Source of the DNA: a virus
Taxonomy: Duplodnaviria; Heunggongvirae; Uroviricota; Caudoviricetes
DNA: 53,102 nt
Direction: 5' to 3' (one strand)
IMG/VR virus record: IMGVR_UViG_3300032330_001391
Coordinates: 1 to 53,102 of that record
The translations under genes and the position numbers were made by a program. The stretch's first letter is position 1. Each line of letters begins with the position of its first letter. Positions 12,002 to 52,353 of this stretch are shown piece after piece. A model generated the notes under the pieces. That model did no database searches. It had not been told where the DNA came from and worked only from the letters and a program-made list of their open reading frames with translations.

Positions 12002-13093
12002 TTACTTTTTAATACCGGCTAATTTTTGCATTCTTTCAAACGCGGAATTAACTTCGATAATTGGTTGTTTGGTGTTTTGAGCACCAGCGATAACTTTAGA
12101 TGCCATACCTCTTACAGACTCAGTCATAGGACGTTTTGTAGTAGTTTGTGTATTTAAGTTTTCCATCATGGTTTCATACACAAGTCTGGCTTCTTTTTTA
12201 CTTGTAGCTTTGTCAAAAGCAGTTAAAACTTTAACTTTTTGTGACTCGCTTAAGTTTTTAGCTTTAAAGACTTTGTTAGCGTAAAGAAGTTTAGAATTTA
12301 ATAAATTAACTTCACTGAGTTCAGATTTAACTTTGGCTAAAACTCTGTAAGCTTCATTTAATTCTTCTTTCATCTCATAATAAGCTTCAAAATCAACATC
12401 TTGGAATTTAGGTAAGTCTCTCTTATGTTTGCTAGCCTTACTAGTTCTGTCATGCTTTTCATAATAAGCATCAGGTTTAAGATCTTTAGCTTCATCTAAA
12501 TCTTCGTCGTCGTACATTTCAGCTAAGAGTTCATCTAAGTTAATTTCCTCTTCTTCTTCATCTTCAACTTCTATTTCATCTTCAGCACCCATCTCATCTT
12601 CCATACCTTCATGTCCAGCTTCTAATTCGCCAGCTTCGATCATGTCAGAGATAACATCTTCAATGAAATTTTTTAAGTCTTTTTCGGTCATGTCTTCAAT
12701 ATCAAATTCTTCTTCCTCCTCTTCTTCAGCTTCTTCAGCTTCCATTAAGTCGGTGTCTGATTCTGAGCTTGGGGTAACATTACCGTGGGCTCCTTGCCCT
12801 CTAGGGTCATTAATAACTTCTTCCATGTCGTTAAGTTCTCTTAGAAGTTCATCTAAGTCTAACTCATCCATGGAATCTTCATTTTCGTACATAGATTCTT
12901 CATCCATGTCCATCTCTTCTGTTATGTCTTCCTCATCCATATTCTCATCTATTTCAGCCAATTTAGCGGCTAATTTTTCTTTAAGATACGGAGTGAAAGT
13001 TTCTTCAAGAGCTACTTTTGCATTGGCGATCGCTGTCTCTTTTATAGCTTTAGCGTCGGCAATGGCTTCTTTCAGAATGTCTCTGTTTGCCAT
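12002..13093 (-). CDS. Prohead scaffold/core protein (gp22-like position)
   Basis: Very acidic and coiled-coil-like; between protease and capsid genes; many L/I-x-E sites; ends ERMQKLAGIKK. Probable start MANRDILKE. Confidence 0.75.
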   Translation of the reverse strand: MANRDILKEAIADAKAIKETAIANAKVALEETFTPYLKEKLAAKLAEIDENMDEEDITEEMDMDEESMYENEDSMDELDLDELLRELNDMEEVINDPRGQGAHGNVTPSSESDTDLMEAEEAEEEEEEEFDIEDMTEKDLKNFIEDVISDMIEAGELEAGHEGMEDEMGAEDEIEVEDEEEEEINLDELLAEMYDDEDLDEAKDLKPDAYYEKHDRTSKASKHKRDLPKFQDVDFEAYYEMKEELNEAYRVLAKVKSELSEVNLLNSKLLYANKVFKAKNLSESQKVKVLTAFDKATSKKEARLVYETMMENLNTQTTTKRPMTESVRGMASKVIAGAQNTKQPIIEVNSAFERMQKLAGIKK

Positions 13094-13120
13094 AATTTTC
13101 CTCAAATTTTTTGTTGGAAG

Positions 13121-13185
13121 TACGCTTATTAAGTGTTGAAAGCGTAATATAATTTATATAAGCGATGCAATATAGGGAATTGCAT
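13121..13185 (-). promoter_or_regulatory. Two hairpins in the 5' leader of the scaffold/capsid operon
   Basis: atgcaat/attgcat stem (13165-13185) and tacgctt/aagcgta stem (13121-13146). Confidence 0.4.
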
Positions 13186-13223
13186 ATTCTAATATACATA
13201 TATCGAAGGGACTCAAAATACCA

Positions 13224-13250
13224 AAAAGAAACCCTCCTTTTAAGGGGGGT
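13224..13250 (-). terminator. Intrinsic terminator after the prohead protease gene
   Basis: Minus strand AACCCCCCTTAAAAGGAGGGTTTCTTTTT. Confidence 0.65.
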
Positions 13251-13272
13251 TAATTTATTTTATAGTATACAA

Positions 13273-13890
13273 TTATATTATAGGACAAGTACCATTAGCG
13301 CAAAGTATTTCAGCTAAAAGAGTATTTACTCTAGAGTATGGATATGTTTTTCTTCTCATTCCTTCATTTAATCCTTCTTTTACTGAGCGCATATATGAAC
13401 CTGGATTAGATGGTGTGCTTACAAAATCCCAACATAATAATTCAAAGTCATCTTGTACTTCCATTGTTCCTTCTCCTAGTGGTTTTAAACTACCCATTCC
13501 ACGAGATGAAACACCTACTTGTACATTATTGTCAATAAGTGCTTTTAATATATTACCAGAAACTGTGGGTAGTATTTCAATTTTACCTATCACTTTATCT
13601 CCATCCCACCATATGTTTCTTATAATATGAGATACATTTTTTAATGAGATAATAGAGGAATCAGGATGATCTAATTCACCTGTTGCTCTATTTTCTTTAA
13701 TACAATCCATGTATTTTTCTATCTCACGTTCCCATAACTCCTTAGGATAATATCTACCATTGCCGTTTTTAACTTCAGCTGTAGCTAATATGCCCTCAAC
13801 AAGTGGATTACCAGATGGAGCTTTAGCACCTTCATGAAGTTGTTCAGGTGATACTGAAAAGGGCATTGTTTCTATTAATACTTGTTTCAT
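13273..13890 (-). CDS. gp21: Prohead maturation protease, T4 gp21-like
   Basis: KNGNGRYYP, GELDHP, GVSSRGMGS and WDFVSTPS motifs. Confidence 0.93.
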   Translation of the reverse strand: MKQVLIETMPFSVSPEQLHEGAKAPSGNPLVEGILATAEVKNGNGRYYPKELWEREIEKYMDCIKENRATGELDHPDSSIISLKNVSHIIRNIWWDGDKVIGKIEILPTVSGNILKALIDNNVQVGVSSRGMGSLKPLGEGTMEVQDDFELLCWDFVSTPSNPGSYMRSVKEGLNEGMRRKTYPYSRVNTLLAEILCANGTCPII

Positions 13891-13892
13891 AC

Positions 13893-18440: not shown

Positions 18441-20015
18441 TTAATCTAAAAGCCAGCTAAAATTTTCTCTACCTCCTCTTCCATCAGACATAAAATAAGG
18501 ATTATCCTGACCAGTAGCGAAATAAGCACCTTGGGTTGGACCTGATTTTCCTACGCCACTTAATGTTGCTCGAGTTAAATCTTGGCTTTGTTGTCTAAAT
18601 TTAAGTGACGTATCTCTTAGATACATTCCTATTCCAAATGACATTACTAAATCATCATTATATCCAGATTGTGCTTCTGCTCTACCGTTTCTCCATATGA
18701 ATACTTTCATTTCATCTAATAAACGTTTAGAACGTATGGTTACAGATCTATCACCAACATATTCTCTAAATTTATTTACTACTAAAGGTCTTGTTCGTAA
18801 AGACATTGTAAATCCAGCTGTAACATTATCACTATTTTCATATTTGTTAAAATATGAGTCTACAGTTAATGTATCTGATTTAGGAGAAAAATATAAGTTT
18901 TTATAACCTCGCTCTAAAATAGCATCTAATGTAGACCAACCAATATTAGAGTTTTCAACTACAAGTAAAGCTTGATTATATTCTGTAGCGGCTCCTACTA
19001 GAAAATATCCAAATTCTTTAGGAGGTAATTGACCCTTATATTCAGCTACTTGAGTATTAGTTGCTATATCTATAACATGAAACGCTGAGAAATCTCGGCC
19101 ATCACCTCTAGCAACATCTGCTAATACCATATAATCTCTTTGATAATCGGGTTGTTCCCACACCCAATAATTTTGATCTGCGCCTCTACGTTCTGATGGG
19201 TCTTGTATAGTAGTATTAGATATAAATTCTAACCATTCATTATAAAAAACAATATCACCAGATGTTGCAAAATCACAATCACATTCTTGAGCAGCTAATC
19301 TTGGATCACCTAATAATTCATCTTGTCTTTTTCTCCAACTTTCATCTCGTTCTGGATGTACATACCATGGTAATTTAATTGGTAAAAAGTCATTTTCAGC
19401 GTTTTCTGCTTTAGTCCAAGTTTGATGAAACCAATTACCTGTACCATATGGGGTAGATAACACAATAGCTCCACCTCCGGTAGCTAAGGTTTGTTGAGCG
19501 GATGCCCATGTATCTTCAATATTTTCAATAAACGCAGCCTCATCTACTATAAGTAATGATACTGCTTCTGAACGTGCAGCGTCACTATTTGATGATTTTG
19601 CTTTAATTTGAGAACCATTTGATAATCTTATTGATAACTTATTATTTTCTTCTGTAGGTACTTTTAACCAAGATGGTAAATTATCATACATAAATTTCAC
19701 CTTAGTTACCATATTGCGAGCTGTTTCTTGTGTTTTGGATAAACACAAAACATTTTTATCTTTATGGAATAACATTAACCATAAAGAATATCCTGCTGCT
19801 AATGTAGATATACCTAACTGTCTAGATTTAAGTACTATAGAATATGGATTATCTTTCCATAATGTCAATACTTTACCTTGAAACGGATATAAATTAAATA
19901 TTACACGACCCCTCTGTGGATGCTGTATATGACAATATTTTTGCATAAAGTGGGCAGGATCAGCTGCACATTTTATATATTCCTCTCTTATAATCTGTTT
20001 AATATCTGTACTCAT
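18441..20015 (-). CDS. gp17: Terminase large subunit, T4 gp17-like
   Basis: FNLYPFQ, LKSRQLGIST, LIVDEAAF, STPYG, ADVARGDG and NDDLVMS motifs. Confidence 0.93.
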   Translation of the reverse strand: MSTDIKQIIREEYIKCAADPAHFMQKYCHIQHPQRGRVIFNLYPFQGKVLTLWKDNPYSIVLKSRQLGISTLAAGYSLWLMLFHKDKNVLCLSKTQETARNMVTKVKFMYDNLPSWLKVPTEENNKLSIRLSNGSQIKAKSSNSDAARSEAVSLLIVDEAAFIENIEDTWASAQQTLATGGGAIVLSTPYGTGNWFHQTWTKAENAENDFLPIKLPWYVHPERDESWRKRQDELLGDPRLAAQECDCDFATSGDIVFYNEWLEFISNTTIQDPSERRGADQNYWVWEQPDYQRDYMVLADVARGDGRDFSAFHVIDIATNTQVAEYKGQLPPKEFGYFLVGAATEYNQALLVVENSNIGWSTLDAILERGYKNLYFSPKSDTLTVDSYFNKYENSDNVTAGFTMSLRTRPLVVNKFREYVGDRSVTIRSKRLLDEMKVFIWRNGRAEAQSGYNDDLVMSFGIGMYLRDTSLKFRQQSQDLTRATLSGVGKSGPTQGAYFATGQDNPYFMSDGRGGRENFSWLLD

Positions 20016-20085: not shown

Positions 20086-20883
20086 TTATTTTAATAAACT
20101 TATTAATCTATCTTGTGCTTTTTCTAATTCTTTTTTAGCTTTAGTTTTTTCTTTAAGTGCGTCTTTTAATTTTTCTTTTTCTTCTCCTTCAGCTTGTTTA
20201 TATTTTCCTACTATTTCTTTCATTTCTTTTTCTATAGCAGTTAATTCATCTTCTAACTTTTGAAGTCTAACTGAACTTTTATTTGTTTTTGCTGCTGTTT
20301 GAGCTCGTTCATCTTTTTCCTTTTCATTACTTTTTTCTTTAGATGTTGATGTTTTAGGAGTTGATGCTTTAGGTTCTTTAGGTTCTTTAGGTGTTGATGT
20401 TTTAGGTTCTTTAGGTAATTTTTCTCTACCAGCTTCAAGATATGCTGCAAAATCTCCATCTTCTTTTTCAAGAGCAGCTCGAGTAGCTGGGTTATTCCAT
20501 GTAGCTGTATCTTTATTTGTTTGTTTAGCTAATACTTTAATATCTACTTCATTTTCTTTTTCTAAAGCGGATAATAATTGATCTAAGGCATTTTTACCAT
20601 ATTTTTCACCTCTATTTTCTTTATACTTATCTAATGCTTTTTTAAAGCCTTCTTTATCTTTTACTTTATAAAAAGATGCCATTTCATTAAGTGAAATTTC
20701 AGCTACACCAATTGATGTTTGTGTTTTTCTAGCTTGAGATATAGCGTCTTTAACGGTGTCTAAACCAGTTCGTTCAGTTCTAGCTATACTTGGTGCTTCT
20801 GATGGGTCTGTTTTAGAGCCAACCATAGTTAATTCTGAAATTATCATTTCTTTGATAAGTTGTTTAAGTTGAGATTTTTTCAT
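20086..20883 (-). CDS. Hypothetical charged protein with MKKSQLKQLIKE leader and PKEPK low-complexity linker
   Basis: ORF translation; internal IISE and LNE sites. Confidence 0.6.
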   Translation of the reverse strand: MKKSQLKQLIKEMIISELTMVGSKTDPSEAPSIARTERTGLDTVKDAISQARKTQTSIGVAEISLNEMASFYKVKDKEGFKKALDKYKENRGEKYGKNALDQLLSALEKENEVDIKVLAKQTNKDTATWNNPATRAALEKEDGDFAAYLEAGREKLPKEPKTSTPKEPKEPKASTPKTSTSKEKSNEKEKDERAQTAAKTNKSSVRLQKLEDELTAIEKEMKEIVGKYKQAEGEEKEKLKDALKEKTKAKKELEKAQDRLISLLK

Positions 20884-20913: not shown

Positions 20914-22188
20914 TTAATCTAAATAATCATCTACTAATTTTTTCATAACTCTTGCTACATTTGAATTAACATCATATCTATCTCGAAAATAAGATACGTC
21001 TTGATCTATATCATTGTTGTGGCTATATTGTTCCCCATCTTCAATTGTAAAATTTCTTACAAAATAATTAAATCCCCAATTGTTTTCCAAATCATCATGG
21101 ATTTTATTCCACTCTTCTTTAGAATATTTTTTAAAATCATCATAATATATGTCATTAGGATCTATTTCATCATAAGAATGAAATAAAGCCCATTCCCATA
21201 TTTCATAATCCGAATTATATAAATCTGGGTAGTCTATGAATTTGGCTAGATAGTTTATTAATTTACCTTCATTTTCATAACTTACATCTAATTTTAATAA
21301 AGAAGCAATACCAGGATCATTAACTCGCATTTCATTTACAGATCGATTAGAATAATTAATTATATATTTTTTAATATCATTTAAATTTAATATAATCATA
21401 ACCCAAACAAATGTTCCTCCACCTTCACTGTCTGTATAAAACTCTAATATTGGAATTTCATATTGTTTAAGTTTAGATATAAAAGATCTTAATCCATTTA
21501 TGTTAAAATCAGGATTCTCAGATTCAATAGCATCCATAATATTTTCATCACTATATCCAGCCATTATTTCAGGTTCATTATATATAGGAATAGTGAACAT
21601 TAATTCTTTATCTTCATCCAATATATTACCATAATATTCAACGTTATTTTTCTTATCAATGTATATTATTTCATCTTCATTTTCTTTTTTAAAAATAAGA
21701 GAAGAAGGTTCATTAACTCGCATTTCATTAATATCAGATTTTTGATCTTTGATCTTTTTTAAAAAATCTTCAACAGCATACTGATAAAGTTTTTGATCGT
21801 CCTTTACTTCTTTAAGTGCTTTTATATACTTGGGATCATTTATATTTATAATATTTTTATTATTAACTGCGTGCTTTAACATGAGTTCATGACCTAAACG
21901 ATTAGCATACCAGTTAAAATCTCTTTCATCATCAATAAGATCACCTAATGTACCTTTATAACCAATTTGTTTAGCGATATCAAATGCTAAAACATTTGCC
22001 ATTTCACCATCATAAAATTCACTCCAAAAATCCTCAGGATCGTCGGGTATTATATAATCATCCCAATATTCATCTAAGATATCTTTATAAAGATTATAAT
22101 TAGTCCAACGATATTTATTTGGTTCATTAACTCGCATTTCTGTTATAGGGATACCAGCCAATTTTTGCATGCGATAAAATTCACTCAT
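20914..22188 (-). CDS. Modular polyprotein: RMQKLAGI leader plus three EMRVN(E/D)P-delimited acidic domains
   Basis: Motif at 22121-22140, 21707-21729 and 21314-21336. Confidence 0.75.
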   Translation of the reverse strand: MSEFYRMQKLAGIPITEMRVNEPNKYRWTNYNLYKDILDEYWDDYIIPDDPEDFWSEFYDGEMANVLAFDIAKQIGYKGTLGDLIDDERDFNWYANRLGHELMLKHAVNNKNIININDPKYIKALKEVKDDQKLYQYAVEDFLKKIKDQKSDINEMRVNEPSSLIFKKENEDEIIYIDKKNNVEYYGNILDEDKELMFTIPIYNEPEIMAGYSDENIMDAIESENPDFNINGLRSFISKLKQYEIPILEFYTDSEGGGTFVWVMIILNLNDIKKYIINYSNRSVNEMRVNDPGIASLLKLDVSYENEGKLINYLAKFIDYPDLYNSDYEIWEWALFHSYDEIDPNDIYYDDFKKYSKEEWNKIHDDLENNWGFNYFVRNFTIEDGEQYSHNNDIDQDVSYFRDRYDVNSNVARVMKKLVDDYLD

Positions 22189-22210
22189 GAATGTTAATTT
22201 AATATAAATA

Positions 22211-22735: not shown

Positions 22736-22746
22736 ATTATTTTATT

Positions 22747-22992: not shown

Positions 22993-23010
22993 ATTCTTTT
23001 TATTTTTTAT

Positions 23011-23042
23011 TAAATATACTAAAGAATTTTTAAAAAACCAAA
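23011..23042 (-). promoter_or_regulatory. Bacteroidota-type promoter
   Basis: TTTG-N20-TATATTTA. Confidence 0.65.
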
Positions 23043-24528: not shown

Positions 24529-24972
24529 TTAAAAACCTAATTGCTTACCATATTTTTTTAACATGCTATCATAGTATCTAATTTTTTTATTATAAAAATT
24601 CGCATCATCTAAAAGACCCATATCTTGACCATACTGGAGGTAAAATTGAGCTGCTAAAGCATTGCAATACAAATTAAAAGTTTCATTACTCATTACAAGA
24701 TTATCAAAATTACCTTTAAAACCAGCTCGTTTAGCAATATCAAATGCTAGATCATTTACTAAACTAAAATCATCAAGTTCTAACATAAATTCTTCAGGAG
24801 AATTAATCCCATATGCTTCAAATAAATCTTCTAACACAGATTCATATCCTTCATAATCTTGCCAATCTGGGGAAAGTGAGTCTATAGCGTTGAATTTTTG
24901 ATTGTTTTTAGACGCGCTGATAGCTTTATTAATCTCTTCGCGAATTAATTTTCTAAGTTCAAATTTTTTCAT
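24529..24972 (-). CDS. Hypothetical acidic protein with MKKFELRKLIREEI leader
   Basis: ORF; LAFDIAKRAGFKG matches domain 1 of ORF 20914-22188. Confidence 0.7.
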   Translation of the reverse strand: MKKFELRKLIREEINKAISASKNNQKFNAIDSLSPDWQDYEGYESVLEDLFEAYGINSPEEFMLELDDFSLVNDLAFDIAKRAGFKGNFDNLVMSNETFNLYCNALAAQFYLQYGQDMGLLDDANFYNKKIRYYDSMLKKYGKQLGF

Positions 24973-25370: not shown

Positions 25371-25372
25371 CT

Positions 25373-25714
25373 TTATATTATCTCTACTCCTAAGTTTTCA
25401 AGAGCTGTTTCTAAATCACGAACATAAGAATAATTTAAACGATCAATTTGTTTAGCATATGGTCCTTTTTCATAAAAAAGAAAATCATATGAATTTTCAA
25501 GATTTATACCATACGCTTTAAGGGCAAGTTGTAGCAAAGATAACCATTCATCTGTTCCTGTTTCTACCGTACCATCATCTATTACTTCTGGGTATTCTTT
25601 TTGAATTAGTGCTTTTATTTGTGTAGCTTTATCAGGTGACTTAACTTGCATTTCATTAATGCCAGCTAATTTTTGCATGCGTTTAAATTCCTCGCTTAAT
25701 ATTTGTTTTTTCAT
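25373..25714 (-). CDS. Hypothetical acidic protein with EEFKRMQKLAGINEMQVKSP leader
   Basis: ORF translation. Confidence 0.7.
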   Translation of the reverse strand: MKKQILSEEFKRMQKLAGINEMQVKSPDKATQIKALIQKEYPEVIDDGTVETGTDEWLSLLQLALKAYGINLENSYDFLFYEKGPYAKQIDRLNYSYVRDLETALENLGVEII

Positions 25715-30951: not shown

Positions 30952-31608
30952 TTAGTAGTATTGCCAGTAAATATCGTTAGGACCTAATTTTATTTTATAT
31001 AAGCGTGGGTTTGTAGGATCACCGTAAAGCAATTCGGGATCTAATGATATGTATGCTCTATTATCATCACCATCATCTAGCATTATATCATCACCACTGT
31101 TCCAAAAACCATATTGTTCTATATCAGCTCTATACCATCCGTTTAATACATTACTCCAAGATGGTTCATCATCTCTTTTCCATTCAGGTGTATTCCAAAG
31201 TGCGTCTACTAAGATTTTTTTAAATGATGGATTTAACACCATATAATTAGCTAGTTGATCATTATTTTTGAATTTAGGTATAGGTTTATTAACCCGCATT
31301 TCATTTACAGGTTGTTTATCTAGTATTACTCCATAATTCAATAGAAATTCTATAAATGAATCAACATTTCCTTCCCAATAATCTTTTTCTTTGATAAATT
31401 TATATGCTTCACGTTTTCTTAATGTTTTATTATCACGTGACGCCACTTTAAACAGATAGATAGCATCAGATGTATCTTCATCAAAATCATACCTAATATC
31501 ATCCCAGTCTTGATCTAACCATTTTTCAAATTCAGGATTAAGATAATATATTTTATCATCAGGAAAATTAATCCGCATCTCATTTAATACATTTATTAAT
31601 TTTATCAT
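30952..31608 (-). CDS. Two-module protein: MIKLINVLNE leader, EMRINFP and EMRVNKP domains
   Basis: Motifs at 31562-31584 and 31283-31305. Confidence 0.75.
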   Translation of the reverse strand: MIKLINVLNEMRINFPDDKIYYLNPEFEKWLDQDWDDIRYDFDEDTSDAIYLFKVASRDNKTLRKREAYKFIKEKDYWEGNVDSFIEFLLNYGVILDKQPVNEMRVNKPIPKFKNNDQLANYMVLNPSFKKILVDALWNTPEWKRDDEPSWSNVLNGWYRADIEQYGFWNSGDDIMLDDGDDNRAYISLDPELLYGDPTNPRLYKIKLGPNDIYWQYY

Positions 31609-31620
31609 GATCGTTGATAT

Positions 31621-32274
31621 TTAATAGTTATGACAGTATAAAGTGTAATCGCCTTCTCCTATGTAAGATATTTCAATTTTTTTATAGCAAACGTTAGTAG
31701 TTATAGTAGTACCGCTTTTATCTCCAAAAATTTCAAAAAGTATTTCATTTGGTTTAAAACGAGTATAATATGATAATATATATTTTTTAGCTTCTTTTCC
31801 GTCTTCACTTAATTGATCTTCATCATTGTAAAAACTCCATTCATTTATTAAAAAATCATCTAATGAATCATAACCAAAACTTTTATAAAGTTCTTGTAGT
31901 GATGAATTACTTGTTATATAAGCTAACAAATATGGTTTTTTATCTATAAAATAATCCAAAATCTGTTCTTTAGAAAGAGATATAGGTTTATTAACTCGCA
32001 TTTCACTTAAAGCTTCAACAGGTTCATACCAGTTTGTACAGTATTCATCAGCGGCATATGGTATCTTGTTAGTGCCAGCCCATTCAGCATAATATGTGTT
32101 ATTACATACTTGATCTTCTTTATTCCACCATTTACAATTAGCACAGCATGAACCTCCTTTAGGTACTTTCATTCCAGCTTTATGACTATCTGGTAGTTCC
32201 ATAGGGCCAGGACCACCATATTCTTCTTTTAATTGTTGTTGTATTAGGTAATTAGTTATGTTGAATTGTTTCAT
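31621..32274 (-). CDS. Two-module protein: Cys-cluster (HiPIP-like) module plus EMRVNKP domain
   Basis: CCANCKWW..C..YCTNW; motif at 31985-32007. Confidence 0.7.
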   Translation of the reverse strand: MKQFNITNYLIQQQLKEEYGGPGPMELPDSHKAGMKVPKGGSCCANCKWWNKEDQVCNNTYYAEWAGTNKIPYAADEYCTNWYEPVEALSEMRVNKPISLSKEQILDYFIDKKPYLLAYITSNSSLQELYKSFGYDSLDDFLINEWSFYNDEDQLSEDGKEAKKYILSYYTRFKPNEILFEIFGDKSGTTITTNVCYKKIEISYIGEGDYTLYCHNY

Positions 32275-32278: not shown

Positions 32279-35200
32279 TTATGATTCTGTTAAATCGTTC
32301 ATGTTATATATTCTGTTATAATCTTCTTGTTTTTCAGGCATACCTGATGAAAGATATACATTGTTTCCTAACATAGAATCACCAGATATGTTATCTTTTA
32401 TGACGTTACCTTCTGCATCCATTATAACCCAAGATTCATAGTACATATTATCCTTATTAGATTTAGGAAGTAAAACATACTTTTTACCTTTATCATTAAT
32501 AATAAACGGTACAGCGAATAATAAAGTACTATATTTTGTATTTTGATTGAATTTTTCAACTAAATTAATTATTGTTTTTCGTTCAGAAGTTGATAATTTA
32601 CGCCATTGTTCTTCATCTATAGGGACTGGGTTTACTTCTTGTGTAGGCATTGCGTTTCTATTTTCTAAATCTTCACTACTTATATTAGTTCCTTCTTCAT
32701 AAATCCATGGTTCAAATAATTTAATATATAATTCATATAATTGTTTAAGTTTTGGGTCACTAATATAATCAATAGCTTCTGGTGGGAGGAAATCAAGTTC
32801 TTTAGCCATTTTATTAACGTATGTTTTAGCAGCGTCTTCACCAAAATATTTTTTAATATATTCAAAAGATAAACTATCTTTTTCAAAAATATCTAAATAT
32901 TGTTGTTTTTCTTCATCACTTAAATATTCAATAAAAGGTAAAGGTACAATGGTAGTTGATGTTTTACCTTGTTTATAGTCATCTAAAGCTCTAGTAAATC
33001 TAAATTTAGCATAACTTCGTGATAAAGCTTTACTATCTTTCAAATCGTTATATGTAGGTTTATATCCAGTACCAGTTCGTAAAGCTAAATTTTTTAATTC
33101 TGGATCTAGGATTTTAAACATAGCACTATTAAATGCATTTGGTTGATCTGCTCTATTAGCGATATATATTCTTTTTTGATTTCTGTTTAAATCTTTAAAC
33201 ATATTGAAATCTAAAATTTTATCTCTTACTAAAGCTTGATCAGTTTCTTCTTCAGATGGAGGGACATATTTAAATACATCTTTAAGATTTTTTATTTTTT
33301 CCCAAGCTTGTTTTCCACTTTCACCTCCATTTTTTATCATAAATTGTCCCACTTCATCCCAAGACATTCCTTTATCATTTCCAGTAGCTTCATGATTTGA
33401 ACCCCATTGATTTACAGTATCTGTCACTCCAAATTTACCATTTTGGAAAGCATGTATTACAAAAAAGTGATACCAATTTATAAAATTTTCTCTATTTGAT
33501 GGATTACCTTTTATATCCGCATTTTGAGTAGAATCTGCTACAAAATAAAAACTTCTAAATGCTCCACCTCGACCAAAACGATATGTGTAATATTGATTTG
33601 ATGCTTCTTCTTTTCTACCTATACAAAATCCGTAAGAATAAATTTTATTATCTTCTCCTTTATATTTAAAAGCATAATTTAATTTAATACAACCACCGTA
33701 ATCACTTCCTTCATAAATTTTAAGCCCATTATTGTTATATACTACTGGTACTCCTTTTATATCAATAAGTTCAGCATCTTGAATTGTACTAAAATCTTTT
33801 GATGATTTTTCAGCTTTTCCACCATAAGCGTCTAAAACAGTTTCTAAATCTTTCCAAGTATAATTTAAAATATCTTGTGGGTTTAAAATTTTATTAGTTT
33901 TAGGATCAGGTTCAGTAAATTTCTTAGGTACTATTATTCCTCCAGCTTCTCCTTTAAGTCCTGCTTGTATTTTTTTAGGGAGATTTTGTTTAATTTGATC
34001 AAATCTATTTAACTTTTCTTTAATATCATCTTTTGACAGAGTATTTTTCATTTCTTTTTGAAATTTTTCTGTCATTTGATTAATAATCTTTTCAGAGTAC
34101 TCATTTAATTGAGTTCTTTTTGATTCTCTTAAATCTTTAAATTCTTTTGTTTTATATACTTTATCTATTTGTATTTCTCTATCATCAAATACTATTCTAA
34201 CATTACCACCATAATGTGTATTTCCATCTATTCCAGCTCTTAATAAGAATAAAGAGGTATCTTTAGGAGGATTTTTAGATTTTTTTCCATAAAAATTTTC
34301 TATAGTATGATAAACTTTACTACCTATCATAGATGTATTTATATTAACATCCACATTATCTTTTTGGGCTTGTTTATTAATTTTATCAACTTGATATTGA
34401 GGAATAGGACCATCCCAATTTAAATAATCAGGAGTTTTATTAGGAAATAATGTAACTTTATATATATAATGCATTGATTCCTGTTCTACTTCTAGATCTT
34501 TAATAATTTCTATAAATTTACGGTAGTTATCTAATACTTCTTCTTTACTTTCAAAATCAGGTTCTTCTTCAAGAATAGAAATCATGTCTTCTGCATATTC
34601 TATATATTCTTTAGCTGTTTTTAGTCCTTGCGGTAATCCAAAAAATACTTCATTTTCATATTCTAAACCTAATTCTTCAGCAGTTTTACCTTGAAATAAT
34701 GTTTTAAACCTATGGGGTGTATTTATAGATAAAGCATATCCTTTAACCATTTCTGGATTTTTTCCGAAATATAAACCCCATCCAATTACTTGTATTCCTG
34801 TTCCCCCACCCATTCCTTCACTGTGAAATTGTCTAAAATAATTTGGTGAACCATGCCATGCCTCTTCATTTTCATTTAATGGTTTAGTTTTATCTATTTT
34901 AGAAAATGTTTTTTTAATTTCTTTATTAAATGATTCAAGAAATATTTCAGCAAAAGTTTGTTTATGCATATTTTCTTTTTTTATCGGTTTTAGTTTTTTT
35001 ATTAAATTTTCTCGTGCCCAAAATCTTTGACCAGTTTTATCATCATCTATTAAATACCAAGGAATACCATCTTTTTCAGTGTAATATCTGTTATAATCTT
35101 TAGATAAGGTTAATGTTTCATTACCTAATGATACTTTTTCTCCTGGGTAGAATTTTTTAGGCTCATTAACTCGCATTTCAACTAATGGAGCGTATTTTCT

Positions 35201-36115
35201 AATTAATGACATAGCTACCGACCTAGGTTCCCAAGAATCAGGATTGTTTCTATCTATATGAGGAGTATCCATATATGGGGGAGGGTTAGTTATAGCACTT
35301 GTCGATACTACTTTTAAGTTATTATCTTCTTGCTCTGCTTTTTTAGACCAACGTGCTACATTCCATCCAGTAAATGCAGCTATTATTTTTTCTTTAGATA
35401 AATCTATTAAATAATTTTCTGGTTCACGATATGTTAATTTTGGGATTTGTTTATAGTCATCATATGAGTGAATTTCTCCGTATGCCTTTTCATATTTGAA
35501 CGGTTCATTAACTCGCATTTCCTTAATAACATCTGTTTTTTTAAATTCTCCTATCAAATATGATTCAAAATCATTATCATCAATAACATCAGCAAGATAA
35601 AATGAGTAGCAATCATTATTATTTATAACTTCATCTACAGAATATTTTACACTTTTTGTTGTATATATTTCATCATCATAATCTATAATATCTTTTTTAA
35701 CTTGGGCAAGAGCACTTCTAAATAAACAATCTATATCTACATTTTCTTCATAGAATTTAGTTATTAATTTGTATAGATAGTTTTTTAAGTTAGGATTAAT
35801 TTCAAGATATTCTTTAATATTTTCTTCATCTATCAGATCTTCATTATTATATGATAAAAGTATTTCTTCACCATCTTTAAATATCTCATGATTATTAAAG
35901 ATCATTTGATCTATTATAAAAGATTTGAGTACATCATATTGTTCAATTAAATAATCTAAATCAATACCATCAGATTCAAATGTATCTATTACGCGTAAAA
36001 CTACATAATCTTTAATTTTAGATATTATTTCAGGAGAAATACCATAAGTAAGAGATTTGGGTTTATTAACCCTCATCTCATTTAAAAATTTATCAGTCAG
36101 TTTAAATTCTATCAT
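32279..36115 (-). CDS. 1278-aa polyvalent polyprotein with three EMRVN modules, an ART-like domain and a large C-terminal module
   Basis: Motifs at 36060, 35502 and 35160; AWHGSP..F..F..GWGLYF and GIDG..IVFDD; further PLNE and QLNE boundaries. Confidence 0.8.
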   Translation of the reverse strand: MIEFKLTDKFLNEMRVNKPKSLTYGISPEIISKIKDYVVLRVIDTFESDGIDLDYLIEQYDVLKSFIIDQMIFNNHEIFKDGEEILLSYNNEDLIDEENIKEYLEINPNLKNYLYKLITKFYEENVDIDCLFRSALAQVKKDIIDYDDEIYTTKSVKYSVDEVINNNDCYSFYLADVIDDNDFESYLIGEFKKTDVIKEMRVNEPFKYEKAYGEIHSYDDYKQIPKLTYREPENYLIDLSKEKIIAAFTGWNVARWSKKAEQEDNNLKVVSTSAITNPPPYMDTPHIDRNNPDSWEPRSVAMSLIRKYAPLVEMRVNEPKKFYPGEKVSLGNETLTLSKDYNRYYTEKDGIPWYLIDDDKTGQRFWARENLIKKLKPIKKENMHKQTFAEIFLESFNKEIKKTFSKIDKTKPLNENEEAWHGSPNYFRQFHSEGMGGGTGIQVIGWGLYFGKNPEMVKGYALSINTPHRFKTLFQGKTAEELGLEYENEVFFGLPQGLKTAKEYIEYAEDMISILEEEPDFESKEEVLDNYRKFIEIIKDLEVEQESMHYIYKVTLFPNKTPDYLNWDGPIPQYQVDKINKQAQKDNVDVNINTSMIGSKVYHTIENFYGKKSKNPPKDTSLFLLRAGIDGNTHYGGNVRIVFDDREIQIDKVYKTKEFKDLRESKRTQLNEYSEKIINQMTEKFQKEMKNTLSKDDIKEKLNRFDQIKQNLPKKIQAGLKGEAGGIIVPKKFTEPDPKTNKILNPQDILNYTWKDLETVLDAYGGKAEKSSKDFSTIQDAELIDIKGVPVVYNNNGLKIYEGSDYGGCIKLNYAFKYKGEDNKIYSYGFCIGRKEEASNQYYTYRFGRGGAFRSFYFVADSTQNADIKGNPSNRENFINWYHFFVIHAFQNGKFGVTDTVNQWGSNHEATGNDKGMSWDEVGQFMIKNGGESGKQAWEKIKNLKDVFKYVPPSEEETDQALVRDKILDFNMFKDLNRNQKRIYIANRADQPNAFNSAMFKILDPELKNLALRTGTGYKPTYNDLKDSKALSRSYAKFRFTRALDDYKQGKTSTTIVPLPFIEYLSDEEKQQYLDIFEKDSLSFEYIKKYFGEDAAKTYVNKMAKELDFLPPEAIDYISDPKLKQLYELYIKLFEPWIYEEGTNISSEDLENRNAMPTQEVNPVPIDEEQWRKLSTSERKTIINLVEKFNQNTKYSTLLFAVPFIINDKGKKYVLLPKSNKDNMYYESWVIMDAEGNVIKDNISGDSMLGNNVYLSSGMPEKQEDYNRIYNMNDLTES

Positions 36116-36479: not shown

Positions 36480-37208
36480 TTAAAATACTTCCGGATTTTC
36501 TTTATAGTCTTTATAGCTTACAGTTAAGAACCCTTTATTATTAAACTCACTAAGAGTTCTTGAATAATCTTCATCCCATAGTGGTTCCTTATAACTTATA
36601 CCATCATTGTGTCTTTCTACTAAATATTCTTCTCCAACATAATATCCATAAGCTATAGTAAATTTATTTGTACCTAATTGATTATATAAAGTCACAAATG
36701 GGAGTAATACATCTTCTATATCATCTTTTATTTCTTTTAAAGACATCAATTCTTCTTTATCTGGTTCTACTATTATATGATCACCTTCTATGTATGGTAA
36801 TTCTTCTTGTGATTGCCAATAATCAGTACTATTATTAGCGTCTAAAATATATTTTAATATGCCTTGATTATCATTGTTATTATAATAGTCAACTAATGTT
36901 AATGCATCATTTTTAGTTAAAGTATCTTCAAATATGTCACTTATTGGTCCTTTCATAAATCTATATAGATCTTTAAAACCATAATACCCACCAGCTAAAT
37001 AATTAATATCTTTTTTTAATTCATTAACTACATTTTGTAATGTGTCATTATATTCACTAAATCTTCCACCCATTTCAGAATCAGAATATATAAATTCTAC
37101 TATTATATCTGCGTCAACATCTGTATAAGATTCACTAGTAGCTTTTATATACAATACGCCAGGTTCATTAACCCGCATTTCATTTAATATATCTATTAAT
37201 TTAATCAT
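36480..37208 (-). CDS. Acidic protein with MIKLIDILNEMRVNEP leader
   Basis: Motif at 37162-37184. Confidence 0.75.
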   Translation of the reverse strand: MIKLIDILNEMRVNEPGVLYIKATSESYTDVDADIIVEFIYSDSEMGGRFSEYNDTLQNVVNELKKDINYLAGGYYGFKDLYRFMKGPISDIFEDTLTKNDALTLVDYYNNNDNQGILKYILDANNSTDYWQSQEELPYIEGDHIIVEPDKEELMSLKEIKDDIEDVLLPFVTLYNQLGTNKFTIAYGYYVGEEYLVERHNDGISYKEPLWDEDYSRTLSEFNNKGFLTVSYKDYKENPEVF

Positions 37209-37210: not shown

Positions 37211-38674
37211 TTAAATTCTATTTCCGTCCTCATCAAAGTTTTTAACATCTGGATAATACTTTCCAGAGCTATCAAACCATCCAACATATCTATCTTCGTC
37301 TTGACCAGCATATGGGCTATATACTGTTATTTCTTGATTTTTCCTATCAATATTTACGGCAGTATAATAAGCATCGGGTGGTGCACCTAGGGCTGTACTG
37401 TAAGCAAATATGTCTTTTGTTACATGCGTTCCAGGTGATTTTTTAAGTAGATGACGTATTGCTAATAACGCTTTACTATCTTCATCTAAATCTTCATAAT
37501 CTTTTAATCTGTATGTTTCACGCGCAGGTTCATATAAATCAAAACCATAATCTGATTCTCCAAAATACTCTACTAATACCCATAATGCTTCTTCATCTTT
37601 ATTTGTTAATTGTCCTGGAATGTTAATCCGCATTTCTTTTACAGGAATACCCGCTAGTTTTTGCATGCGTTTCATTTCATCCAAACCTTCTAAACCAGTA
37701 TCATCTTTTTTAAGATCAGAGTTTATATCACGCATAGTATAAAACGCCCATCTTTTTTGCTCATTTGTTAATTCATCATTGATAGCATTTTCAACAAATG
37801 AATAAAATTCATCATAATCTGCTATTTTATACAATTCAGCTAAAAATAAATCTCTAACACGAGGATCATCAAATTCAGACTCTACCCATATTTTAGTTAT
37901 ATTATTGTATATATATTGCCCAAATCTTATATCATCTAATTCATTTTTATATGTATCAACTTGATTAGTGACTTTTTTAGCTTCTTCTCCACCTGATTCT
38001 TTACGTTTAGGAAAAGATACATTTACTCTTCCTACTCCTTCTAATTGATCACCATAACGATCAATAACTTGCAATAATTTAGCTATTTGATTTTCATCAT
38101 GATATCCACCAAATATATCATCCATAACTTGAGCATAATCATCAGTTAATTCAGGATTAATAAGATCTAAATAATCTTTGTAATTATAATGACTGAATGC
38201 TCCTCGTACTGCTCCACCTTGTGTTATACTATTTATGATACGTCTTTTTTCAGGAGAAACCTTATTATGGTAAGCTTGTTTAGATATAATCTCATATAAT
38301 CCTTTAGCTATTTCATGCATTAAAATAGGAAATACTAATCCTCGAGCGTGAATTACAATATCATGTTTTTTTAGTAATTCTGGGTCAGTTTGGTATGGTT
38401 TTCCTAATTTGGTATCTTTTCCTAATTTAGCATCTATACCTATCCCAGCATAGTCTATTACAGGATATACTTCTTTAGCTATTTGAACAGCTAAAGCTTC
38501 TAATTCATCCTTATAATCTGCTTCTGCTGCTTCTAATTTATTTACTAAACTAAACGCGTTAGCCTGCATTTGTCCAGGTGATCTTCCTTTTAAAACTTTA
38601 CTAAGAGTATCTTTAGATTTTCCTTTAAGTGTACCTAAAGTTTTAGGTGAGAATATATTTTTGTATTCAGCCAT
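37211..38674 (-). CDS. Hypothetical protein with a C-terminal RMQKLAGI-EMRINIP appended module
   Basis: LDEMKRMQKLAGIPVKEMRINIP at about 37617-37680. Confidence 0.7.
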   Translation of the reverse strand: MAEYKNIFSPKTLGTLKGKSKDTLSKVLKGRSPGQMQANAFSLVNKLEAAEADYKDELEALAVQIAKEVYPVIDYAGIGIDAKLGKDTKLGKPYQTDPELLKKHDIVIHARGLVFPILMHEIAKGLYEIISKQAYHNKVSPEKRRIINSITQGGAVRGAFSHYNYKDYLDLINPELTDDYAQVMDDIFGGYHDENQIAKLLQVIDRYGDQLEGVGRVNVSFPKRKESGGEEAKKVTNQVDTYKNELDDIRFGQYIYNNITKIWVESEFDDPRVRDLFLAELYKIADYDEFYSFVENAINDELTNEQKRWAFYTMRDINSDLKKDDTGLEGLDEMKRMQKLAGIPVKEMRINIPGQLTNKDEEALWVLVEYFGESDYGFDLYEPARETYRLKDYEDLDEDSKALLAIRHLLKKSPGTHVTKDIFAYSTALGAPPDAYYTAVNIDRKNQEITVYSPYAGQDEDRYVGWFDSSGKYYPDVKNFDEDGNRI

Positions 38675-45280: not shown

Positions 45281-45781
45281 TTAGGCGTTTGGATTTATAT
45301 CAGGTTCAGCTACATGCTGACGAGTGAAGAAAGTAATTGTATTGCCAATTTGATGAAGTAATTTATCATCTTTTAATTTTTCAGCAGCGTCTTGTAATTG
45401 ATCAAGTAAATCTAATATACGTTCTACTTCAGGATCGTCTCCACCACCAGTTTCCATACTTGGTTCTTCCATATCTGGTTCTTCTATGTCAATATCTTCT
45501 ATATCAATGTCTTCATCGTCATCTTTAGATTTCTTTTTAGCTTCATCTACTGGGTCATAGTATGAATCTTCTACAGCAGCACCGTCCATTTCTGCTAATA
45601 CCATTTCACGTATCTTTTTACGTAATTTAGATTTAGCCATTTTTTCACCAGCTTTTTTACCTTTTTCATACTCATAAGCTCCTAAACCTTCATTGAGATT
45701 TTTACGCTCACCAAATGTATTAATCTTTAGTTCACTATCAATGCCAGCTAATTTTAGCATTCTTTGAAATTCATTGTTCAT
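45281..45781 (-). CDS. Acidic protein with MNNEFQRMLKLAGI leader
   Basis: ORF translation. Confidence 0.6.
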   Translation of the reverse strand: MNNEFQRMLKLAGIDSELKINTFGERKNLNEGLGAYEYEKGKKAGEKMAKSKLRKKIREMVLAEMDGAAVEDSYYDPVDEAKKKSKDDDEDIDIEDIDIEEPDMEEPSMETGGGDDPEVERILDLLDQLQDAAEKLKDDKLLHQIGNTITFFTRQHVAEPDINPNA

Positions 45782-48232: not shown

Positions 48233-48658
48233 TTATTTATTTTTTATATTATCTTCCCAATTACGTAACATCATATTTCCTTTGTCATATGCTTCTCTTT
48301 CTAAATCAGGCAAATCACCATCTTCATTAGTATTGGTAGTATTTACATTATTTAATCTATTTTCTAAATTTTGCATATGATGTACCATTTCATGTGAGTA
48401 TGAACGTAAAATATCTTTAGGATGTCTACCTAAAGAATACAGTGTTATACTTTTATTACTAGGATCATAATGAGCAGTACGTCCTAATAATTTATTAGCA
48501 TTTTCTGTATCATTACTTATGACTTTTAATTTAGGTAATGGTGATATGTTCATACCATTATCTAACATGTATTTAGTTAAAGATACTATACCGTTTTGAA
48601 GTTCTCCATCTTTTTTTTGGCAGTCGCATTCTTTTAATAGTTTAACTAAAGATATCAT
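48233..48658 (-). CDS. Zincin-like metallopeptidase with MISLVKLLKE leader
   Basis: YSHEMVHHMQ (HExxH) and downstream EREAY. Confidence 0.7.
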   Translation of the reverse strand: MISLVKLLKECDCQKKDGELQNGIVSLTKYMLDNGMNISPLPKLKVISNDTENANKLLGRTAHYDPSNKSITLYSLGRHPKDILRSYSHEMVHHMQNLENRLNNVNTTNTNEDGDLPDLEREAYDKGNMMLRNWEDNIKNK

Positions 48659-50405: not shown

Positions 50406-50437
50406 ATAATATACCATCTTAAAATTAGATAGCCAAA
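50406..50437 (-). promoter_or_regulatory. Bacteroidota-type promoter upstream of primase
   Basis: TTTG-N20-TATATTAT. Confidence 0.55.
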
Positions 50438-50874
50438 TCTTTTGGAAAAAATTTTCCTAGTATATTACTATTTACCCATATCTTATCATCAGCTAATACA
50501 TCGTATTCAAATAGATATTTTGTTTCATAGTAGGTTAACTCTTTTGAGGACAAGCATAGACGTAACACTACACGTTGTAATTTTTCAGGTGGTATAGATT
50601 TAGCCCATTGTTTAACTTCATCAGCTGAGCCGTAATATGTCTTCCAATCTGATTCTTTTATTATTTTTTTCTTAGATGGAATACGGCCACGTTGAGTAGG
50701 TAAGGATGCTAATTCTTTCTTACCTAGTTTTTTATTTGTTGTATGTTTAAATATTTTTTTACCAATATATTGACGACCATTTTCTAGATTAGTTGTCATA
50801 TAAACGTAACCATAATATTCATCTATATTAAATGTAGGATCGTTGATTAAATCATCAACTAATAGTGGTTTCAT
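50425..50874 (-). CDS. GIY-YIG family (Seg-like) nuclease
   Basis: GYVYMTTNLENGRQYIGKK, YYGS, ELTYYE and NSNI motifs. Confidence 0.7.
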   Translation of the reverse strand: MKPLLVDDLINDPTFNIDEYYGYVYMTTNLENGRQYIGKKIFKHTTNKKLGKKELASLPTQRGRIPSKKKIIKESDWKTYYGSADEVKQWAKSIPPEKLQRVVLRLCLSSKELTYYETKYLFEYDVLADDKIWVNSNILGKFFPKDLAI

Positions 50875-50887
50875 AACTTGTGATATA

Positions 50888-51397
50888 TTACATATAAATA
50901 TTACCTTCAACACCCGGTGCCATTTGTCTAATTTCTTCTTCGGTATGTGATTTGGAAAGTGGAGTATTACTTAAAGAAAGATAATCTTTAACTTCTAAAT
51001 TAGGAGGTAATGATGCGATTAGAGTATCACTTAAATGAAGACTCCATCCAACTTTTAAATCAGGAGGTAATGATGTAATTGGGGCACCAATTAAATAAAG
51101 ATCACCTCCAACATTTAAACCAGGAGGTAATGATTTAATTGGGGTACCACGTAAATCAAGATTACCTCCAACTTCTAAATCAGAAGGTAATGACATAATT
51201 AGAGTATCACGTAAATCAAGATTACCTCCAACTTTTAAACCAGGAGGTAATGATTTAATTGGAGTATCCATTAAATTAAGATCACCTGTTCCTCCATTTC
51301 TTATGTAATCTCTTGCTTGTTGATTGGCTAGTTGGAGTGGAGTTAATTTAGGTGGGTTAACTCTCATTTCTTTCAGTATGTCAAGTAATTTTATCAT
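50888..51397 (-). CDS. LRR protein 1 (five full 20-aa repeats plus cap)
   Basis: MIKLLDILKEMRVNPP leader; 60-bp period; start follows TATTTATA. Confidence 0.85.
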   Translation of the reverse strand: MIKLLDILKEMRVNPPKLTPLQLANQQARDYIRNGGTGDLNLMDTPIKSLPPGLKVGGNLDLRDTLIMSLPSDLEVGGNLDLRGTPIKSLPPGLNVGGDLYLIGAPITSLPPDLKVGWSLHLSDTLIASLPPNLEVKDYLSLSNTPLSKSHTEEEIRQMAPGVEGNIYM

Positions 51398-51398
51398 G

Positions 51399-51905
51399 TT
51401 ATATAAATATTGCACTTTTGATACCTGGTGACATTAATCTAATTTGGTCTTCTGTATGTGATTTAGCAAGTGGGGTATTATATAAAAAAAGACTACCCCA
51501 AACTTCTAAATCAGGAGGTAATGATGTGATTAGTGTATTGTGTAAATTAAGATAACTTCCAACTTTTAAGCCAGATGGTAATGATGTGATTGGAGCATTA
51601 ATTAAAGAAAGACTACCTTCAATTTCTAAATTAGGAGGCAATGATGTAATAGGAGTATTATCTAAAGAAAGGCTACCTTCAACTTTTAAATCAGGAGGTA
51701 ATGATGTGATTAAAGTATCATCTAGACTAAGTTTACCTCCAACCTTTAAGCCAGAAGGTAATGATTTAATTGGAGTATATGCTAAACCAAGATCACCTAT
51801 TCCTCCATTCCTTATGTAATCTCTTATTCTATTCTGAGCTGATTGGAGTGGAGTTAATTTCATATTAACTCTCATTTCATTCAATATATTTATTAGTTTT
51901 ATCAT
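51399..51905 (-). CDS. LRR protein 2 (five full 20-aa repeats plus cap)
   Basis: MIKLINILNEMRVNM leader; repeat xLxLxxTxIxSLPxxLxVxG. Confidence 0.85.
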   Translation of the reverse strand: MIKLINILNEMRVNMKLTPLQSAQNRIRDYIRNGGIGDLGLAYTPIKSLPSGLKVGGKLSLDDTLITSLPPDLKVEGSLSLDNTPITSLPPNLEIEGSLSLINAPITSLPSGLKVGSYLNLHNTLITSLPPDLEVWGSLFLYNTPLAKSHTEDQIRLMSPGIKSAIFI

Positions 51906-51906
51906 A

Positions 51907-52353
51907 TTATATAAAAATTTCACCTTCAACTCTAGGTATCATTTGTTTAATTTGTTCTAGGGTGTGTGATTTAGAAAGTGGAGTATTACTTAAACTAAGA
52001 TAACCTTTAACCTTTAAATCAGAGGGTAATGATGTGATTAAAGTATCACTTAAATTAAGATTACCCCCAACTTTTAAACCAGGAGGTAATGATGTAATTG
52101 GAGTATAATATAAATAGATATGACCTCCAACTTTTAGATTAGGAGGTAATGATTTAATTGGTGTATTTTCTAAATCAAGATTACCTCCAACCTTTAAGCC
52201 AGAAGGTAATGATCTAATTGGTGTATTTTCTAAATCAAGATTACCTACTTCCCCATTTTTTATGTAATCTCTTATTCTATTTTGAGCTAATTGAAGTGGA
52301 GTTAATTGTGTATTAACTTTCATTTCTTTTAATATGTCGAGTAGTTTTATCAT
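51907..52353 (-). CDS. LRR protein 3 (four full 20-aa repeats plus cap)
   Basis: MIKLLDILKEMKVNT leader; same repeat and caps. Confidence 0.85.
   Translation of the reverse strand: MIKLLDILKEMKVNTQLTPLQLAQNRIRDYIKNGEVGNLDLENTPIRSLPSGLKVGGNLDLENTPIKSLPPNLKVGGHIYLYYTPITSLPPGLKVGGNLNLSDTLITSLPSDLKVKGYLSLSNTPLSKSHTLEQIKQMIPRVEGEIFI

Follow-up and report, generated by a model that had tools for sequence, protein, structure and literature searches.

To our knowledge, targeting of proteins to a capsid by a short leader that is then clipped off has been established only for bacteriophage T4 and its close kin, and it has been inferred for some giant phages. In T4, the prohead protease gp21 cuts after the Glu of an L/I-x-E motif, head proteins lose N-terminal propeptides of 7–65 residues, and the first 10 residues of internal protein IPIII are enough to bring a foreign protein into the head (PMC9026906; also PMC3012670, PMC5694885). 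Within this capsid-targeting sequence (CTS), positions 4 and 7 serve targeting and positions 8 and 10 serve processing (PMC9026906). Replacing the Glu by Asp in T4 prevents processing and leaves targeting intact. Here we describe the first 53,102 nucleotides (nt) of IMG/VR record IMGVR_UViG_3300032330_001391 (the whole stretch, hereafter the window), which belong to a distant T4-like myovirus and encode many unrelated proteins with short leaders of three classes, A, B and C. Class A appears to copy the N-terminus, and class B the C-terminus, of a putative scaffold protein, and the leaders are probably, although far from certainly, capsid-addressing propeptides of the T4 CTS kind, clipped by a gp21-type protease.

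The locus shares with T4 a 10-residue N-terminal tag that ends in L/I-x-E and stands on unrelated proteins (in T4, IPI–III and, as propeptides removed by gp21, Alt and gp24). Both phages encode the same protease family, both conserve the tag at the nucleotide level and both have cargo of an ADP-ribosyltransferase family, T4 Alt being of a different one. Because of this precedent, the tagging concept is known and not new. T4 has a handful of tagged genes, whereas about 22 are found here in three classes, and its scaffold C-terminus, ..VYAKVASRF, lacks the class B motif; here, in addition, internal sites would make polyproteins, an extra conserved P′ segment, MRVN-x-P, follows the predicted cut, and the system is known from sequence alone. 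What is new is this expansion of the T4 logic in a distant, environmentally abundant clade, with its three classes, its copy of a scaffold tail and its protease-jointed polyproteins.

Encapsulin cargo-loading peptides and a C-terminal targeting segment of the HK97 protease, the latter reportedly described by Duda et al. in 2013 (cited in PMC12749128), are likewise short terminal peptides that address proteins to the inside of an HK97-fold shell. They have other sequences, are not known to be removed by proteolysis and are not known to copy a scaffold. A further parallel is the herpesvirus scaffold, in which a conserved C-terminal peptide lies just past a maturation-protease site (the M site), so that proteolysis there would release the scaffold from its partner (PMC4498786). 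In herpesviruses the tail is known to bind the capsid protein; here such binding is conjectured, and the scaffold peptide also recurs as the N-terminal leader of many other proteins. T4-type proteases are related to the herpesvirus enzyme (PMC9026906). Polyvalent proteins with ART-PolyVal-type domains, finally, are predicted to be packaged and injected, and T4 Alt is a packaged ADP-ribosyltransferase (PMC5512222). The window encodes a comparable large multi-module protein of 1278 amino acids (aa) with an ART-PolyVal module, located among late and virion genes and likewise predicted to be packaged and delivered. Its modules differ from those of polyvalent proteins in being bounded by prohead-protease motifs and preceded by a leader, and one of them is identified; the others had no family match. 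No Pfam domain of the MuF, portal or metallopeptidase kind, which link polyvalent proteins to packaging or processing, was found in it.

Two leader classes resemble the ends of a putative scaffold protein

Synteny and acidic composition mark the product of 12002–13093 as a putative scaffold (Table 1); it had no match in Pfam or PHROG and no significant BLASTP similarity to T4 gp22. Both of its termini are conserved among relatives whose scaffold open reading frame (ORF) was recovered. The N-terminus is kept as MANRDLLKEAIADAK.., and the protein ends in ..SRWQKLAGIIK in Flavobacterium phage vB_FspM_immuto and in ..ERMKKLAGIVK in Microcystis phage Mel-JY01. The 80 IMG/VR relatives yielded 64 distinct tails; in an alignment of 39 of these, I, E, R, L, A and G never vary, and the tail is a conserved peptide preceded by a protease motif.

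Class A, with the pattern MI(K/Q/S)(L/I)..(I/L/V)(L/I).E, occurs nine times in the proteome, every time at an N-terminus, against a mean of 0.10 in shuffled proteomes. It opens ORFs 30952, 36480, 38972, 41550, 48233, 50888, 51399 and 51907, at the coordinates given by an earlier, sequence-only reading of the window (for the last four ORFs, ATG and not an upstream TTG or GTG was used as the start). The class is a 10-mer with hydrophobic residues at positions 4, 7 and 8, an acid at 6 and Glu at 10, and it ends in L/I-x-E at residues 8–10; all nine genes show the short N-terminal leader with hydrophobic residues at 4 and 7 that characterizes a CTS. The T4 leaders MKTYQEFIAE (IPII and IPIII) and MAKINELLRE (gp24) have the same register, and this match to an experimentally proven CTS argues that class A is of the T4 type. 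A shorter motif, D[IL]L[KN]E, is found five times in the proteome, always at residue 5–6, in the scaffold and in four class A leaders (shuffle mean, 0.53), suggesting that class A copies the scaffold N-terminus. Neither this copying nor the T4 precedent figured in the sequence-only reading.

Class B was recovered exactly where that reading had placed it: RM(Q/L)KLAGI ends the scaffold (12011–12034) and recurs at 22150–22173, 25658–25681, 37646–37669 and 45740–45763. Beyond the window, at about 142.1 kb, there is a sixth copy with the variant sequence RMKTLAGI, and shuffled proteomes contained 0 copies. The motif is followed by I-x-E or I-x-x-E; E-M-(R/Q)-(V/I) comes 1–4 residues after three of the copies, as had been claimed, and the copy at 45740 continues as DSE-LKIN. 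Leaders of classes B and C are 10–21 residues long and, like class A, end in [LIV]-x-E. A cut at the internal site of ORF 37211 would leave its N-terminal 347 residues with a scaffold-like end.

To follow class B beyond this genome, we scanned IMG/VR for the heptapeptide MQKLAGI and used the first 120 loci, all of which belong to this capsid-protein clade or have its neighbouring genes. These comprised 89 C-terminal tags, 26 N-terminal leaders and 7 internal copies. [LIV]-x-E stood 3–6 residues past LAG in 26/26 N-terminal leaders and 3–11 residues before the tag in 80/89 C-terminal ones (exactly 7 residues in 56). Because the motif flanks both N- and C-terminal copies, a single cut would nearly always suffice to part the tag from the body. 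When 1.84 billion representative proteins were searched with a profile of the N-terminal form, 1113 clusters matched at E 0.001 or better, 127 of them at 1e-10. Among the best 150 of the 1113, 149 have the tag in the first 45 residues (nearly always at residue 1), 146 of these 149 with the cut motif, and their 21–22-residue consensus is MKKQILSEEFRRMQKLAGIITE, often followed by SQLNE. The 112 class B bodies of at least 70 residues form 76 unrelated BLAST families. As with a T4-type CTS, leaders stand on otherwise unrelated proteins, by all-against-all BLASTP as well, and are swapped between orthologues (see below). Few bodies have any family match (RecA, TnsA-N, HD and PBECR4 among them), and no Pfam model covers the leader. 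These comparisons show that class B copies the scaffold C-terminal F-x-R-M-Q-K-L-A-G-I clade-wide. One protein of the representative library (P0063) carries the class B leader as a tandem duplication, and among P0063, P0073, P0129 and P0062 are proteins of 874–1005 aa that bear the tag twice, once close to each terminus.

Of the three classes, C has the lowest specificity. L-x-x-L-I-(K/R)-E opens ORFs 20086, 24529, 25037, 38682 and 39685 and lies inside 13893 and 38972, in agreement with the sequence-only reading. The other internal copies proposed there fared unevenly, with one present near the C-terminus of 47709 and only looser forms in 43459 (QLRKLVKEEI) and 45281 (KLRKKIREMV). The strict pattern, ending in I-(K/R)-E, was found 10 times in the proteome against a shuffle mean of 0.03. 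The terminase N-terminus, MSTDIKQIIREEY, fits the class almost as well as the leader of ORF 38682, MKKSDLKKIIREEI. Separately, 24924–25034 and 25264–25374 form a 111-nt direct repeat (88% identity) that, for both ORF 24529 and ORF 25037, takes in the upstream element TATTTATA, the start codon and the class C leader; about 60 nt before the two ATGs are identical and the bodies have diverged.

Leaders are bounded by the predicted cut motif of a gp21-type protease

The strongest signal is one that the sequence-only reading barely mentioned. The genome holds 16 copies of [LIV]-x-E-M-(R/Q/K)-(V/I)-(N/K), most of them continuing with x-P; every copy is in the coding frame, and the other five frames have 0. 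At 16/16 of these E-M-R-V-N junctions P3 is L, I or V and P1 is Glu, and the predicted capsid (LVTE/T) and scaffold sites are built likewise. Seven junctions lie inside proteins (ORFs 20914, 30952, 31621, 32279 and 37211). A repeat finder that used DNA only recovered the same leader and junction families. Every tag is bounded by [L/I/V]-x-E, the motif of T4 gp21, and these boundaries are predicted cut sites.

The junctions are also conserved as DNA. On the coding strand (window 21319–37636) their consensus is GAAATGCG(A/G)GTTAAT...CC; the junction Arg codon is CGA or CGG at 10 of 13 sites in the window (genome-wide, 11% and 1.2%), and the Val/Ile codon after it has T as its third base at 16/16 genome sites. 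We considered E-MRVN-x-P as a clade-wide motif and rejected it: with 0 occurrences in 5 relatives and, across IMG/VR as a whole, only 58 scattered matches of one copy each, the junction is essentially private to this genome. A relative has E-A-F-I-N-x-P in its place, and the Ala at that position speaks against the junction Met being an internal start codon. Possible sources of the P′ conservation are homogenisation within the genome, selection at the codon or RNA level, and a role of the new N-terminus.

Such nucleotide conservation beyond the protein, in rare Arg codons and in the invariant third-base T, would be expected if leaders and junctions were mainly recombination or gene-conversion linkers for cassette shuffling, with no head addressing. 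The private nature of the junction fits this too, as do the fusions and splits at junctions described below and the T4 record, where IPII and IPIII both open MKTYQEFIAE with two copies that agree at 30/30 nucleotides. The conserved DNA core, however, measures only about 20–25 nt and has no flanking identity, and class B is kept as protein over more than 1000 clusters. What stays invariant is the [LIV]-x-E rule and not a DNA word. Shuffling and targeting, moreover, need not compete, and in T4 the two go together. We therefore regard linkers without any addressing role as quite unlikely.

Leaders are exchanged between bodies at the junctions

Module 1 of ORF 20914, which has a class B leader, is homologous to the body of ORF 24529, which has a class C leader (BLASTP E 9e-14). 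Two metagenomic phages have an orthologue of ORF 36480 with a class A leader and another has one (P0003) with a class B leader, the swap falling exactly before L-x-E. In another metagenomic relative (L003), ORF 32279 is split into two genes, the second of which opens MIRLLDILKE where the window has ..RTQLNE/Y, and module 3 of ORF 20914 is the C-terminal part of a separate gene; the same relative has proteins ending in ..RRMQKLAGIYD and ..KRIQKLAGIL. By these comparisons the leaders are modular and interchangeable, with swaps, fusions and splits falling exactly at junctions.

Exchange of this kind is hard to reconcile with leaders that do nothing, that is, with generic amphipathic N-terminal helices produced by AT-rich codons and paralogy. 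At 30.6% G+C, M-K-K and M-I-K starts are cheap, the class C match in the terminase looks coincidental and some post-junction bodies are weakly similar to each other. Against this, counts are 90-fold or more above proteome shuffles, one body stands behind different leaders and different bodies behind one leader, tags also occur internally and at C-termini, and the leader is far better conserved than the bodies. An absence of function is already strongly disfavoured and, in our judgement, very improbable.

Leader genes are enriched for a late-type upstream element

Two upstream elements were found, an exact TATTTATA without an upstream partner and a bipartite TTTGG-N(14-24)-TATATTTA. The first precedes the sheath, tube, portal and terminase genes, and from this gene set and its likeness to T4's TATAAATA we infer that it is a late promoter. 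It stands before 10/22 leader genes and 22/204 other genes (Fisher p 1.6e-4). The bipartite element stands before 0/22 leader genes (p 0.05); its 36 copies in the genome are dense in the small-gene region at 73–82 kb, which is probably the early region, and it precedes five untagged genes that lie among the leader genes (22747, 23105, 27133, 29451 and 40353). The bipartite element resembles the Bacteroidota −33/−7 promoter.

The leader genes sit between the head module (10–20 kb) and the baseplate module (gp6- and gp25-like genes, 62–64.6 kb). A sizeable ORF lies between the protease and scaffold genes in seven relatives, with a class B leader in three and a class C leader in one; in one genome (L071) a class B gene is directly upstream of the scaffold gene.

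Late expression and the [LIV]-x-E rule would suit any late protease-dependent process, and the sites might be cut while the tags serve another purpose, as inhibitory propeptides of toxic effectors or as baseplate or tail assembly tags. A class-C-like gene (genome 64591–64938) that directly precedes the gp25-like baseplate gene in transcriptional order fits such a role, and the ART-PolyVal, PBECR4 and HD bodies resemble enzymes whose early activity could do harm. Yet gp21-type proteases act inside proheads (PMC9026906), the tags copy both ends of a head-internal scaffold, and relatives have class B and C genes inserted between those for the protease and the scaffold. We consider a purpose other than head addressing unlikely.

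A model of capsid addressing and the points against it

From the anatomy, statistics and conservation of the leaders, their swaps, the protease family and the promoter association, all of which are observed, we infer docking, cleavage, encapsidation and ejection as follows. Late in infection, about two dozen unrelated proteins would be made with a short amphipathic tag imitating one scaffold end, class A the N-terminal propeptide and class B the C-terminal tail. The tag would co-assemble its protein with the scaffold core, or with a partner of the scaffold ends, within the prohead. The gp21-type protease would then cut after the Glu of [L/I/V]-x-E, detaching the cargo and splitting multi-module proteins internally, and the freed cargo (the ART-PolyVal module, leucine-rich-repeat-like proteins and many ORFans) would be kept in the head and delivered with the DNA. 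More tentatively, and with somewhat less belief than disbelief on our part, both scaffold ends may be portable, protease-detachable labels, with class B docking at the scaffold-tail site by a herpesvirus-like M-site logic in more than 1000 clusters.

Several observations weigh against capsid addressing. The scaffold was identified from synteny and composition only, and across the complete relatives that were compared no covariation was seen between leaders and scaffold tails at the W/M or I/L/V positions. The M-R-V-N-x-P that follows the Glu is kept far more strictly than cleavage should require, and the capsid and scaffold sites do without it, which leaves a part of the signal unaccounted for; its conservation at synonymous positions suggests a contribution from the nucleotide level or from gene conversion. 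The specificity of class C is low, as the terminase N-terminus DIKQIIREEY (19980–20003) matches it too, in a stretch that relatives' terminases conserve and that seems to belong to the enzyme itself. The idea that class C copies a conserved helix of core protein 13893 was rejected, the helix being present in only 4/67 homologous ORFs. A search of the literature found no paper that mentions the motifs and no proteomic data on relatives, and the T4 CTS is reported to send proteins to the scaffolding core, so that docking to the shell is not implied (PMC3012670). Complex prediction with the capsid protein (39-row alignment) and the last 40 scaffold residues (39 rows) scored 0.01 against a mark of 0.32; run without controls, it counts for neither side.

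The sequence-only reading had proposed that unrelated cargo borrow the docking peptide of the scaffold or its core-binding helices. The first half finds support in sequence, in that class B copies the scaffold C-terminus and leaders swap; the helices, represented by class C, are not supported, given the 4/67 count and the terminase match. If both scaffold ends are indeed portable labels, aquatic T4-like phages would hold a very large unannotated repertoire of capsid-delivered effectors, and the leaders would offer a ready-made packaging tag for phages of Bacteroidota. Working tags would also flag injected ORFans as prime candidates for host take-over and anti-defence, would point to the scaffold peptide that likely does the docking, and would provide a packaging tag for protein delivery by phages outside E. 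coli.

Candidate cargo

Among 20 leader-bearing or head-core proteins, none had a Pfam match that passed the threshold (weak sub-threshold matches were to DUF5872, Curlin repeat and LRR), and PHROGs gave a single match, to the unknown-function family phrog_7595 in ORF 39685. The cargo bodies are mostly ORFans.

The ART-PolyVal module of the 1278-aa protein was recognized by homology. By itself it matches Pfam below threshold (E 0.024) and scores 0.93 in atlas features, with 202 shared; PF18760 is carried by a module homologue (P0036, 53% identity) and by 11 more distant ones. Among stand-alone orthologues, close ones open MIKLSKVLE.. or MTKLIDILNE.., and distant ones open MKTFKEFINE, near the T4 CTS. 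The cluster of the distant homologues has seven neighbouring same-strand genes with similar leaders, for example LKTYKEFLNE. These leaders provide the strongest comparative argument that the sequence preceding this domain would be a CTS. On a JGI metagenome contig of another phage (L211:2973-14367), a same-strand cluster has the leaders MKTFKEFINE, MLKNYEDFINE, MINSFKEFIFE and LKTYKEFLNE, and three of its members have ART-PolyVal matches.

A 208-aa protein encoded outside the window is a possible Alt-like packaged ADP-ribosyltransferase. Its R21, S58 and E110 are invariant in 18 orthologues (conserved Arg, Ser-Thr-Ser and Glu). It scores 0.90 in the atlas to ART-clan clusters, but with only 132 shared features, and it has no Pfam match. 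Its structure model (pLDDT 65) gave no Foldseek row at E 0.001 or better against PDB and viral libraries; the best rows include the ART-fold proteins MTX, PltA, NarE and Tpt1, at E 0.18 or worse.

The three leucine-rich-repeat-like paralogues at the end of the window are 55–65% identical in pairs and match Pfam LRR weakly (E 0.002); eight copies of a 60-nt-period repeat run across them (50885–52263). The predicted fold of ORF 36480 (4-row alignment) has a mean pLDDT of 55, below 35 over residues 1–70, and would fit MRVNEP as a linker or as the first strand of the domain.

Table 1 Features of the window and of one gene elsewhere in the genome. Positions are those of the window unless marked.
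Feature	Position	Strand	Remark
Major capsid protein, gp23-type	10185..11966	−	Pfam Gp23, E 4.3e-75
Predicted capsid-protein maturation site, L-V-T-E / T	11790–11801	−	Alignment with relatives and T4 gp23
Putative scaffold protein, 363 aa from ATG, acidic	12002..13093	−	Between protease and capsid genes, in the place of T4 gp22
Scaffold C-terminal tail, VNSAFERMQKLAGIKK	12005..12052	−	Preceded by P-I-I-E (12053–12064)
Scaffold N-terminal propeptide, MANRDILKE, ending L-K-E	13067..13093	−	D[IL]L[KN]E shared with class A
Prohead serine protease, gp21-type	13273..13890	−	Pfam Peptidase_S77, E 9.6e-29
Class B leader of ORF 20914, MSEFYRMQKLAGIPITE	22138..22188	−	TATTTATA 22 nt upstream
Class B leader of ORF 25373, MKKQILSEEFKRMQKLAGINE	25652..25714	−	Near letter-for-letter match to the clade-wide consensus
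Class B leader of ORF 45281, MNNEFQRMLKLAGIDSE	45731..45781	−	TATTTATA 27 nt upstream
Internal class B tag and cut motif in ORF 37211, DEMKRMQKLAGIPVKE	37634..37681	−	
Class A leader of ORF 36480, MIKLIDILNE	37179..37208	−	Pattern match
Further class A leaders	31579–31608, 39644–39673, 42813–42842, 48629–48658	−	Pattern match
Further class A leaders	51368–51397, 51876–51905, 52324–52353	−	Pattern match
Class C leader of ORF 24529, MKKFELRKLIRE	24937..24972	−	Pattern match
Further class C leaders	20848–20883, 25277–25312, 38916–38951, 40312–40341	−	Pattern match
Three-module protein 20914	20914..22188	−	E-MRVN-x-P junctions 22126–22140, 21712–21726, 21319–21333
ORFs 30952 and 31621	30952..32274	−	E-MR(V/I)N junctions 31567–31581, 31288–31302, 31990–32004
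1278-aa polyprotein	32279..36115	−	Junctions 36065–36079, 35507–35521, 35165–35179; L-N-E before residues 416 and 673
Leader of the 1278-aa polyprotein, 13 residues, MIEFKLTDKFLNE	36077..36115	−	
ART-PolyVal (ADP-ribosyltransferase) module, polyprotein residues 416–672	34100..34870	−	Homology
Three paralogous leucine-rich-repeat-like proteins	50888..52353	−	Each with a class A leader and E-M(R/K)VN
Bipartite elements	23011–23042, 24394–24425, 28337–28368, 30650–30681, 40700–40731	Coding strand	
208-aa protein, class A leader MIKLIDLLKE	Genome 134049–134675, outside the window		Leader kept in all 17 aligned orthologues

Genome context and head module

The viral record comprises 160,908 bp and is AT-rich; all genes of the window are on the minus strand. 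The phage is a T4-like phage of aquatic bacteria, and its gp20-gp21-gp22-gp23 type module has the gene order of T4. The gp20-type portal matches Pfam Portal_T4 (E 2.3e-68), and the gp17-type large terminase is 61% identical to that of phage vB_FspM_immuto and 51% to that of Mel-JY01. In immuto, products of the genes upstream of the terminase open M(A/E)(D)NF(N/D)L(R/K)(S/K)FL(T/V)ENKL.

The predicted capsid maturation site was located by its distance from the conserved LPLVRKVF..VQPM block, with T4 gp23 as the comparison. L56, V57 and E59 are invariant across 39 relatives, and the invariant Q-L-V-x-E lies about 20 residues ahead of the conserved W-A-G-[IV]-A-L-P-L-V-R block, at a position comparable to that of the T4 cleavage site.

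Outside the window, two neighbouring genes (genome 118621–120538) resemble, judged by their N-terminal sequences only, GroEL and GroES homologues, and the GroES-like gene has the late-type TATTTATA 25 nt upstream.

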